From Candidatus Bathyarchaeia archaeon (GTDB lineage Archaea; Thermoproteota; Bathyarchaeia; 40CM-2-53-6): 64,000 bases of DNA. The stretch's first letter is position 1. The number at the start of each line of letters is the position of its first letter. This document shows, one piece after another, positions 48,558 to 51,323 of the stretch. A program made the translations under genes and the position numbers. The DNA is taken from positions 256,001 through 320,000 of the forward strand of contig JBEKFP010000002.1 of NCBI GenBank assembly GCA_050013255.1. Reading direction: 5' to 3'. The notes under the pieces were generated by a model. That model saw only the letters and a list, made by a program, of their open reading frames with translations, made no database searches and was not told the DNA's origin.

Positions 48558-48710
48558 TGGTGCGGCCGCCGGGATTCGGACCCGGGTTTCCTCGTTGCTG
48601 CGATTGCAACTTTGAGGCTTGGGAAGCCCCCGTCATAGACCAGGCTATCCCTCCAACCTTTCCAGGTTGGGAACTGGACCACGGCCTAATGGAGCAATCC
48701 GTGCTCACGC
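48558..48710 (-). tRNA. tRNA-Gly(CCC) with three non-canonical introns (3/4: 48686-48707; 15/16: 48645-48673; 45/46: 48588-48611)
   Basis: Removing three BHB-type segments gives GCGGCCGTGGTCCAGCCTGGTCTATGACGGGGGCTTCCCAAGCCTCAAACCCGGGTCCGAATCCCGGCGGCCGCACCA, a complete cloverleaf. Confidence 0.9.
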
Positions 48711-48760
48711 ACTCAAAGTCCAGCCACGACGACCGCAAATCCGGAAAGCATCGAGCTCAC

Positions 48761-48968: not shown

Positions 48969-51186
48969 CTAGGCTTCCATGAAGTCTTCTGCCTTCTGCG
49001 GTTCGGGGGGTAGGCCTTTACGTTCGCGAATGCCGGTGATGATTTGGTTTAGTAGGGAATTCGGGACGGGTGCCCAACGGGAAAACTCCAATCCCCAGAA
49101 TGCCCGCCCTTGGGAAGCGCCGCGCATGACCTCTGAGAGGTCGAAGGTTTCCGCTGTTGGGAGTTCCCCAACCACGTAGACTAGGTGGCCGCGTTGGTCG
49201 ACTGAGAGGATTTTCCCGCGTTTCTGTGAGATTACACTCGTCGCGGCTCCTAGTAGTTCTGGTGGTACCTTCACCGTGATTTTTTGGACTGGTTCCAGTA
49301 GAACTGGGTTTGCGCTGAGGAATGCCACGAAGAACGCCCTTCTGCTCATTGGCATGATTTGGGCCGGTCCTCTGTGCACTGGGTCTTCGTGAAGTGAGAC
49401 ATCCGTGACCTTTACCCTGACCCCTCGAATCTGCTCATACGCGAGGGGGCCTTCTTTTATTCCCCAGCGGTAACCTGCAATAACCATTTCCTTGACCTCT
49501 TGGACGTATTGGGCCCCTTTCGTCACTTCCAAAAGCATGTTGCTTCCCTCGTCAACGCTCCACACCCCACGGGCTTCGTCAGCAGGCCATCCTTCTTCTC
49601 GAAGTACCTTGGCCATTTCATGTTTGTCCTGGTATTCCCCAATCTTGCCCTCCTTGATCATGTCGACGATTTTGTCGGGCAGGGGTTCAACTTCCAGGTA
49701 GATCTTGTTGTGCTTGTTAGGTGACTTGCCTTCCACAGGCCCGGCGGTGCCTCTGATGCTTTCGCGGTAAATCACGATTGGTTTGGAGGTTACTATTTCC
49801 AACCCGGTTTTCGTTATTAGCGTGTTCGCTATTTCCAAGTGCAGCGTGCCCATTCCGGCTATGAGGTACTCGCCGGTTTCTTCGTTGATCTTCGTCACGA
49901 GGTTCGGGTCTTCGAGGGTCAACCTTCGCAGTACTTCCACGAGTTTAGGAAGGTCCCTGCTGTATTTCGGTTCGACGGCCATCGTAACGACGGGTTCGGT
50001 GACATAGTGGACGGCTTCGAAGGGCGCGATGTCCTTTATCGTTGATAGTGTCTCGCCGGCCTTCGCAGCATCTAAGCCTAGAAGGGCGGGTATATTGCCT
50101 GCGCTTAATGTGCCCACGATTTCTCGGTATGGCCCCATGAAGATGCATACCTGCTGAACTCTCTGGTCAACTCTTGCTCCGAGTAAGTGGAATGTTGACG
50201 CTTCATGGATTGTTCCTGAGAATAGCCTGCCGCTGGCGACGACCCCAGCTTGCGGGTCAACAACAATGTTCGTGATCGCCATAACTACTGGGCCGTTGTC
50301 GTCGCAGTTCATCATGGCTTGGCCGACTTCGCTGTTTATGTCCCCCTTCCAAATCTTCGGAATCCGATACTTCTGTGCTACATGTGGCGGGGGCAGATGC
50401 TCCACTGCCATGTTGAGGATGGCTTCGTCAAGCGATGCTCGCTCTTTTAGTTCGCTTACCTTTTCGTTCAGGTAGGCGTCGACGACATCGGAGAATTTGA
50501 CATTCTTCTCCTTCGCGATTTCCGCGTTGAATCCCCATCGGTCCTTGGCGGAACCCATGGCCACAGTGTTCGATGCGAAGCTTACCTTCCATTTCTCACG
50601 GTACTCAGGTTCAGCGTAGAGCTCGATTAGGCGGTTGAACTCGGTGATTATGCGCCCGACTCTCTCTTGAATCTGCTCGGGCGACAACCTCAATTCTTTG
50701 ATGAGGCGGTCAATCTTGTTAATGTACAGCACAGGCCGCACACGTTCCTCAAGCGCCTGCCTCGTCACCGTCTCCGTCTGAACCATAATCTCCTCAACAG
50801 AATCCACAACTACAACCGCACCGTCAATCGCCCTAAGCGAGCGTGTGACTCTTCCAGAAAAGTCAACGTGGCCTGGTGTGTCGATTAGGTTAATGACGTA
50901 CGGTATCCCATTCCTTTCGTGTAACAGGCTTATGTTCGCAGCCTTAATGGTCATCTGGCGCTTTTGCTCTTCCTCCATGTAATCTAGGGCTAGCGCTGTC
51001 CCAGCCATGCCTGGTGACAGAAGACCAGCAGCTGCAAGGAGGGAGTCGCTCATCGTCGTTTTGCCGTGGTCGACGTGGGCAATGATTCCCATATCTTCCG
51101 GACGCAGAACTAGGCTACGTCATTCGGATTTGTTCCTTGTTAGCTATGATCCTCTGTATTTCCGTCGTAGATTTGTAACGGGGCAT
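48969..51186 (-). CDS. fusA: Translation elongation factor EF-2, join(51123..51186, 48969..51094), 729 aa after removing a 28-nt intron
   Basis: AHVDHGKT, DTPGH, NKID, diphthamide loop HEDPVHRG; exon 1 MPRYKSTTEIQRIIANKEQIR joins N-MGIIAH. Confidence 0.93.
51095..51122 (-). other. Putative BHB-type (tRNA-endonuclease-spliced) mRNA intron in EF-2
   Basis: UCCG/CGGA central helix, AA|U and AG|A bulges, 7-bp GACGUAG/CUGCGUC stem; contains in-frame UAG. Confidence 0.85.
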
Positions 51187-51323
51187 TTTTTCTCAACTCT
51201 GCTCCGAAATCGAGAAGGCAACATGACTCAATATCATTAAAGCATTATGCTTGGTTCTGCCCAGTTTTCGGGGCACCCTTTTGCCCATCCAGTAACGGAG
51301 CACGGCTTACGTTTCTGGCGCTG

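Follow-up and report, generated by a model that had tools for sequence, protein, structure and literature searches.

A probable tRNA-type intron in the EF-2 gene of a Bathyarchaeia genome

The gene of the translation factor EF-2 in Candidatus Bathyarchaeia archaeon was interrupted, close behind its start codon, by 28 nt at positions 51122-51095 of the window, which is the whole stretch of 64,000 nt analysed here (C2:256001-320000 of a 2.46-Mb metagenome-assembled genome in 3 contigs, with an estimated contamination of 8.55%). These 28 nt are very probably an archaeal bulge-helix-bulge (BHB) intron in the EF-2 pre-mRNA, spliced in the way of tRNA introns. Two results agree with the assignment to Bathyarchaeia: a public protein of 92% identity bears the name Candidatus Bathyarchaeia archaeon, and a Bathyarchaeota MAG is similar to family f17 of this class. 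The coordinates of the gene parts, the structural elements and further introns were collected in Table 1. Numbers with G, C, L and f are the labels used here for genomes, contigs, loci and families, and a slash inside a sequence marks the point of interruption.

The interrupted gene and its conservation among relatives

An open reading frame (ORF) of 707 aa (51092..48969) was identified as EF-2 by its Pfam domains (GTP_EFTU, domain 2, EFG domains III, IV and C). The GTP_EFTU match of this ORF begins at profile position 6, so the N-terminus of EF-2 is missing from it. The unspliced frame of exon 1 continues M-T-stop, with UAG at 51117-51115, and forms a 23-aa ORF (51115..51186). Besides carrying this in-frame UAG, the insert of 28 nt shifts the EF-2 frame. 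With 51122-51095 removed, ATCCGAA was joined to ATATGGG, and AUC CGA AAU AUG GGA could be read as I-R-N-M-G. The spliced product would then be ...KEQIR-N-MGIIAHVDHGKT, with 21+1+707 = 729 aa and the predicted junction peptide NMGIIAHVDHGK, and the restored EF-2 has an intact strand ahead of the P-loop. An earlier sequence-only reading of the window had given these coordinates and 28-nt boundaries, which proved exact to the base on the minus-strand sequence, and the frame restoration and the 729-aa EF-2 that it had announced were reproduced from the sequence.

Table 1. Features of the EF-2 gene, its BHB motif and other BHB introns in the genome (window positions unless a contig is named)
Feature	Position	Strand	Description
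EF-2 exon 1	51123..51186	minus	start ATG at 51186; 21 complete codons (MPRYKSTTEIQRIIANKEQIR); A at 51123 begins the Asn codon
EF-2 BHB intron (probable)	51095..51122	minus	UGACGUAGCCUAGUUCUGCGUCCGGAAG; 28 nt, phase 1, in-frame UAG at 51117-51115
EF-2 exon 2	48969..51094	minus	remaining AU of the Asn codon; 707 codons (MGIIAHVDHGKT...); stop
Central 4-bp helix, 5' strand UCCG (exon 1)	51125..51128	minus	paired in 44/44 sequences at all four positions
5' bulge AAU	51122..51124	minus	predicted cut between 51123 and 51122
Intron stem-loop	51101..51121	minus	GACGUAG (51121-51115), loop CCUAGUU (51114-51108), CUGCGUC (51107-51101)
Central helix, 3' strand CGGA (intron)	51097..51100	minus	from the fold and the relatives
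3' bulge AGA	51094..51096	minus	predicted cut between 51095 and 51094
tRNA-Gly(CCC) gene	48558..48736	minus	three BHB introns of 48, 29 and 24 nt: 48728-48681, 48673-48645, 48611-48588
cbf5 BHB intron	C2:595047-595065 (L179), outside the window	minus	19 nt at G/AT of the catalytic Asp codon (GGTL-D-PKVTG), in-frame UAA
B12-binding mutase BHB intron	C2:407640-407657, outside the window	plus	18 nt, strict hBHBh', outer helix GCCCG/CGGGC

The minimum-free-energy fold of the site yielded the UCCG/CGGA helix, the AAU bulge and the 7-bp stem GACGUAG/CUGCGUC, while the second bulge, AGA, was closed by a weak exon helix alone. Two opposite 3-nt bulges 4 bp apart, AAU and AGA around UCCG/CGGA, are present, as expected of a BHB motif. 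The intron-side helix was strong, with 7 bp, 89.6% of cells paired and every pair co-varying. The geometry proposed by the sequence-only reading, a cut after the second nucleotide of each bulge, gave exactly the junction that restores the frame, and the same cut position in the bulge was reported for cbf5 (Yokobori 2009, PMC2738675).

Other kinds of intervening element were considered. Rfam scans of the site at gathering and relaxed thresholds gave no match, and a self-splicing group I or group II intron or another curated RNA family was rejected on this result and on the length of 28 nt, which is far too short. An intein at 51122-51095 was rejected as well, for the 28 nt contain a stop codon and their number is not a multiple of 3.

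The same break was present in nearly all EF-2 loci of the 40 relatives compared, which share the genus, family or order of this genome, and a sample of 150 genomes of the class gave 44 distinct BHB regions at the same codon. The intron was 25-54 nt long among the relatives, and its lengths were spread over the three modulo-3 classes (16/13/13), which is consistent with untranslated sequence. In every parsed intron-bearing locus, a cut after the second bulge nucleotide restored [IVL]-R-x-[MIV]-G-I-I-A-H. The loop sequences were unrelated among the intron-bearing relatives.

The helices were recovered from the alignment by RNAalifold, which found the central helix, the bulge and the stem unguided, with changes on both sides in 8 of 11 pairs. 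All 7 stem pairs had both-sided changes among the relatives, and the double changes of the central helix included C-G to G-C and C-G to U-A. Paired cells amounted to 93.4%, against 81.9% in shuffles, and 0/500 shuffles reached the observed pairing or covariation score, statistics that overstate independence because the aligned sequences are related. When the 3' partner was slid, pairing fell to 25-50%.

Precise absence of the insert was found inside the order in five genomes (G037, G167, G124, G147 and G089), whose IRN-G region was unbroken and exactly co-linear. IRN-G was also unbroken, and the intron missing, in more distant archaea and in 33 genomes of the class that represent 19 other families, and distant EF-2 and EF-G genes from a search of genome contigs served as intron-less outgroups. 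An alignment of fusA from relatives had been proposed by the sequence-only reading as a check, and both the presence or absence of the intron and the compensatory stem changes that it was meant to reveal were found.

The insert might be an assembly error, or the gene might be a pseudogene with another factor in use, and the metagenome-assembled genome, with the contamination estimated above, speaks for such a doubt. However, the insert was found at the same codon in >50 independent assemblies, and both exons were conserved as coding sequence. EF-2 was also single-copy in the genome, where the other match, with 32% identity over the first 139 residues, was a different GTPase; the intact second fusA that had been named earlier as an observation against splicing was looked for in the genome, and only one EF-2 gene was there. 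Artefact or decay is thus exceedingly unlikely, and a spliced BHB intron in a functional gene is the preferred reading.

RNA and coding evidence at the exon junction

RNA data were taken from one public peat metatranscriptome run (X1), in the form of contigs that share words with the gene, and were compared over 48969-51300. Contigs of this run cover exon 2. In two of them the match stops at 51094 and is followed by TTCGGATCTGGTCCTTGTTAGCT, which in reverse complement reads AGCTAACAAGGACCAGATCCGAA, a 3' end of exon 1 with two synonymous differences from the window. The genomic continuation past 51094 would read CTTCCGGACGC..., and since TTCGGATCTGGTCCTTGTTAGCT stands in its place, exon 2 passes directly into exon 1 in the two RNA contigs, with the join exactly where it was predicted. 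A join of the ATCCGAA/ATATGGG type, for which the sequence-only reading had advised a look into RNA reads, was in this way seen in two same-genus contigs. They are direct but thin evidence of splicing, consisting of two contigs from one run and from a same-genus relative. In run X1 exon 1 (51153-51230) was free of co-linear contigs, and the intron was not seen in any contig; this empty cover means that no unspliced contigs were observed, and is not proof of the absence of unspliced RNA.

The junction contigs could also stem from the DNA or the RNA of a strain that lacks the intron and is not among the sampled ones, in which case splicing would be inferred from the structure only. RNA libraries may contain DNA, and the five intron-less alleles listed above occur in the same family and order. 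But the loose end encodes ...ANKDQIR with GCTAAC, exon-1 codons of the type of this genus, whereas the intron-less relatives read ...VSNK... or ...IQNK..., and all 20 same-genus genomes with a recovered EF-2 N-terminal region have the intron (20/20). The lack of a co-linear exon-1 contig in run X1 argues against such a strain as well. This origin of the contigs is held to be very improbable, and they are read here as spliced EF-2 mRNA.

Skipping of the 28 nt by the ribosome, through translational bypassing or frameshifting in the style of phage T4 gene 60, was also weighed. A stop codon and a hairpin do lie close after the break and superficially resemble a take-off site. However, the gap varies within the length range of the introns given above, and conservation is seen in a 4-bp helix between 3-nt bulges instead of in matched take-off and landing codons. 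A CGA tRNA would have to land on CGG out of frame, and the insert is already gone from the RNA contigs. Bypassing can hardly be credited in view of these points, and removal of the insert from the RNA is preferred.

A further alternative is that there is no splicing, that exon 1 is a separate upstream ORF of 23 codons, and that EF-2 starts from AUG 51092 with 707 aa, perhaps by termination-reinitiation. In this genus an AUG is indeed present at 51092, 22 nt past the UAG. Public proteins fit this start too. When the 72-aa spliced N-terminus was searched against a set of 5.8 billion proteins, only fragments of intron-less relatives and exon-2-only calls were found. Among them, P0008 was of the G037 type and came from ENA assembly ERZ27245621, P0051, a protein from a public assembly, began at the exon-2 Met at 51092, and P0068 matched the exon-2 part of the query alone. 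The protein search added nothing to the RNA evidence.

Against this stands the codon at 51092 itself. In the majority of the other families with the intron it is AUU, AUC or AUA and an in-frame start is missing nearby, so exon 2 could not be translated alone in them. Without exon 1 the Pfam G-domain match lacks the start of the profile, and the RNA contigs carry the exon-exon junction. In addition, the peptide of exon 1 has its homologue in the N-terminus of intron-less EF-2, and exon 1 changes among relatives in the manner of coding sequence. The exon-1 frame was free of stops in 39 distinct relatives, the aligned start was ATG, TTG or GTG in 38 of the 39, and the entropy by codon position was 0.56/0.41/1.17 over these 39 distinct sequences, the third position varying about twice as much as the first and second. 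This pattern indicates that exon 1 is under coding selection. Translation without splicing is accordingly given very little probability, and exon 1 is taken as the first part of a spliced EF-2 gene.

All of the tallied intron-bearing relatives (43/43) had an in-frame stop inside the intron, at the third codon (UAG, UAA or UGA) in 37/43 loci and later, at codon five or six, in the remaining six. As the lineages are related, this is no more than suggestive of selection on the early stop for termination on unspliced RNA.

Several points weigh against the intron, besides the relatedness of the aligned sequences. The z-score of the single-sequence fold (-1.45) was not above chance and was not used as evidence, and the case rests on the comparison with relatives because of this unremarkable value. 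The outer helix on the exon side is weak (A-U, mismatch, A-U, variable, C-G), and the motif is the relaxed form and not the canonical hBHBh'. The junction RNA came from a close relative and not from this organism, with unaligned loose ends of 21-23 nt. Finally, cleavage by EndA, ligation by RtcB and the circular intron are steps that we infer. A relaxed BHB form was described for cbf5 too (PMC2738675).

Predicted splicing and comparison with known systems

The enzymes EndA and RtcB, on which the sequence-only reading relied, are both encoded in the genome. Two proteins with an EndA domain were found, one of 190 aa and the other of 187 aa. The 190-aa protein (...IYEHGPGIDHAPF...) had its best matches in the crenarchaeal chains 3p1z_B, 2cv8_A, 3ajv_B and 2zyz_B. 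We take 3p1z_B, 2cv8, 3ajv_B and 2zyz_B to be catalytic subunits of (alpha-beta)2 enzymes, and the Tyr and His of the 190-aa protein presumably stand at the catalytic positions. The 187-aa paralogue was without a His matching that of the 190-aa protein. This pair of genes points to a two-subunit EndA arrangement. RtcB (C1:110968-113778, minus strand; L114, L115) was encoded in one 1039-aa frame, in which the profile matched two pieces about 1.4 kb apart, and the intein-sized insert suggests an intein in the RtcB gene.

In the proposed mechanism, UCCG of the exon would pair with CGGA of the intron, leaving one 3-nt bulge per strand, 4 bp apart, beside the 7-bp intron hairpin. The two-subunit EndA would cut after the second nucleotide of each bulge, RtcB would join the EF-2 exons, and the excised 28-nt intron would probably be circularised. 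Unspliced RNA would yield only the 23-aa peptide because of the in-frame stop within three codons, and the stop in the intron may be a safeguard against translation of unspliced RNA. A wider proposal, which takes up the tie of EF-2 supply to tRNA-splicing activity suggested by the sequence-only reading, is that the P-loop region of EF-2 is a recurrent landing site of tRNA-type introns in uncultured Thermoproteota, with early stops selected, and that EF-2 synthesis depends on EndA and RtcB, by which the heavily interrupted tRNAs of these archaea are matured too, and is possibly tuned by them, as a checkpoint tying a translation factor to tRNA supply; this is speculative and rather unlikely as a whole.

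A BHB intron in cbf5 pre-mRNA was reportedly described by Watanabe in 2002 and Yoshinari in 2006, and BHB motifs are said to have been treated by Marck and Grosjean in 2003. The cbf5 intron is present in Desulfurococcales and Sulfolobales (Yokobori 2009, PMC2738675), and a 2023 review names cbf5 and HVO_1309 as archaeal mRNAs spliced by EndA and expects more (PMC10485636). The EF-2 intron works like the cbf5 intron, whose hosts have a hetero-oligomeric EndA (PMC2738675), as is predicted for the present one, and presence among relatives is patchy in both cases; cbf5 of the present genome was itself interrupted at the same site as in the published system. The two cases differ in that the host gene here is an essential translation GTPase, and the lineage is Bathyarchaeia together with other uncultured Thermoproteota. 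The EF-2 intron also lies 64 nt from the start codon and keeps an early in-frame stop (UAG, UAA or UGA), and its cleavage is predicted.

HVO_1309 of Haloferax volcanii is the second published archaeal mRNA substrate; its mRNA was cleaved by EndA and was spliced in RNA-seq (PMC7714728; review PMC10485636). It resembles EF-2 in being an archaeal mRNA with a BHB motif for the tRNA-splicing endonuclease, whereas its host is a euryarchaeon with homodimeric EndA and the gene is unrelated. For HVO_1309, an order-wide comparative record like that of EF-2 was not found in the literature searched.

Archaeal tRNA introns are like the EF-2 intron in motif, size range and predicted enzymes. Endonucleases of the (alpha-beta)2 and epsilon2 types have been described (PMC5829648, PMC12397907). 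Introns that are non-canonical or multiple occur in tRNAs of Thermoproteales and of further archaea. Unlike a tRNA, however, EF-2 is an mRNA substrate, so that frame, stops and competition with ribosomes count. In eukaryotes, a small intron is removed from HAC1/XBP1 mRNA by the Ire1 endonuclease and tRNA ligase or RtcB, and the frame is changed. HAC1/XBP1 shows that such splicing can be regulatory, but the endonuclease, the RNA motif and the eukaryotic context differ from those of EF-2. The role of RtcB in splicing of this type is noted in PMC8718801.

No report of a BHB intron in EF-2 was found in the full-text literature searched, which leaves most subscription journals outside, so a prior report is possible. 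In the searched literature, EndA-dependent splicing of archaeal mRNA is treated as a rarity; here an essential, highly expressed GTPase would rely on it. The intron has been retained throughout one order of Bathyarchaeia and is met again in other classes. Because gene callers place the start at Met-23, EF-2 is recorded as a shortened protein. EF-2 is a common phylogenetic marker, and such truncated calls would therefore affect alignments. With the intron 64 nt from the start codon, the relation of splicing to coupled translation is directly testable in EF-2.

Distribution in the phylum and further introns of the genome

A further 200 genomes of the phylum were scanned for interruption of EF-2. 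The same R/N site was interrupted in other classes, in 6/6 genomes of f40, 3/3 of f45 and 2/2 of f51 (L180-L189, L199), with UCCG/CGGA or UUCG/CGAA as central helix. Early stops (UGA, UAA or UAG) were present in 10 of these 11 loci, while in G203 (L185) the first in-frame stop came after the intron. The earlier wording, in which the intron belonged to "this lineage", was hence too narrow, since it extends through the order and into other classes of the phylum. Near-complete genomes of f34, f42, f48, f50 and f53, in one or few contigs, were not flagged, as judged by long open frames alone.

A second intron site in EF-2, AH/VDHGKT within the P-loop motif, was found in f57 and in a single genus of f46. 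The introns there were of phase 0 and 30-33 nt long, and in the loci L190 (G284), L191 (G211) and L192 (G190) the in-frame stop came at codon two or three.

Inteins were observed in EF-2 as well. An intein of about 570-640 aa followed the P-loop Lys (AHVDHGK/C...) in L176 (G001:C20:32300-32800), L017, L178 (G153:C7:4200-4700) and L177 (G089), and the intein end ...HN/T was read in L017 and L030. In G001, which belongs to the same genus, and in G153 the BHB intron and the intein occurred together, 12 codons apart, and G089 had the intein only.

Within the window, each of the three introns of the tRNA-Gly(CCC) gene had a 4-bp helix between 3-nt bulges, with the cut after the second bulge nucleotide. 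This three-intron parse was the sole solution among BHB-like triple cuts, and the three-intron gene was not detected by ARAGORN or Rfam. The statement that a tRNA-Gly 2.4 kb from EF-2 has three introns of the same geometry was found to be right.

The sequence-only reading had also supposed that more such introns were hidden in the genome, which held for cbf5 and for a B12-binding mutase. The site and phase of the cbf5 intron are those published for Crenarchaeota (PMC2738675). Among the papers from the literature searches on the EF-2 intron, none of which was aimed at cbf5, no report of a cbf5 intron in Bathyarchaeia was found. The mutase intron interrupted the Asp codon of KPGL-D-GHDRG, the cobalamin-binding motif; it was of phase 1, and an in-frame UAA followed that codon immediately. 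Because cbf5 and the B12 mutase are also interrupted in this genome, BHB introns in protein genes may be routine in lineages with multi-intron tRNAs.

A genome-wide scan for frame-merging BHB-like motifs recovered the EF-2 intron and was not discriminating: its matches numbered 845 against 898 in random placements for type A and 476 against 423 for type B, so that no count of introns in the genome results from it. The three checked protein-gene introns, those of EF-2, cbf5 and the B12 mutase, were all of phase 1, had a stop no more than three codons from the 5' cut, and stood in or beside a codon of a catalytic or ligand-binding motif.

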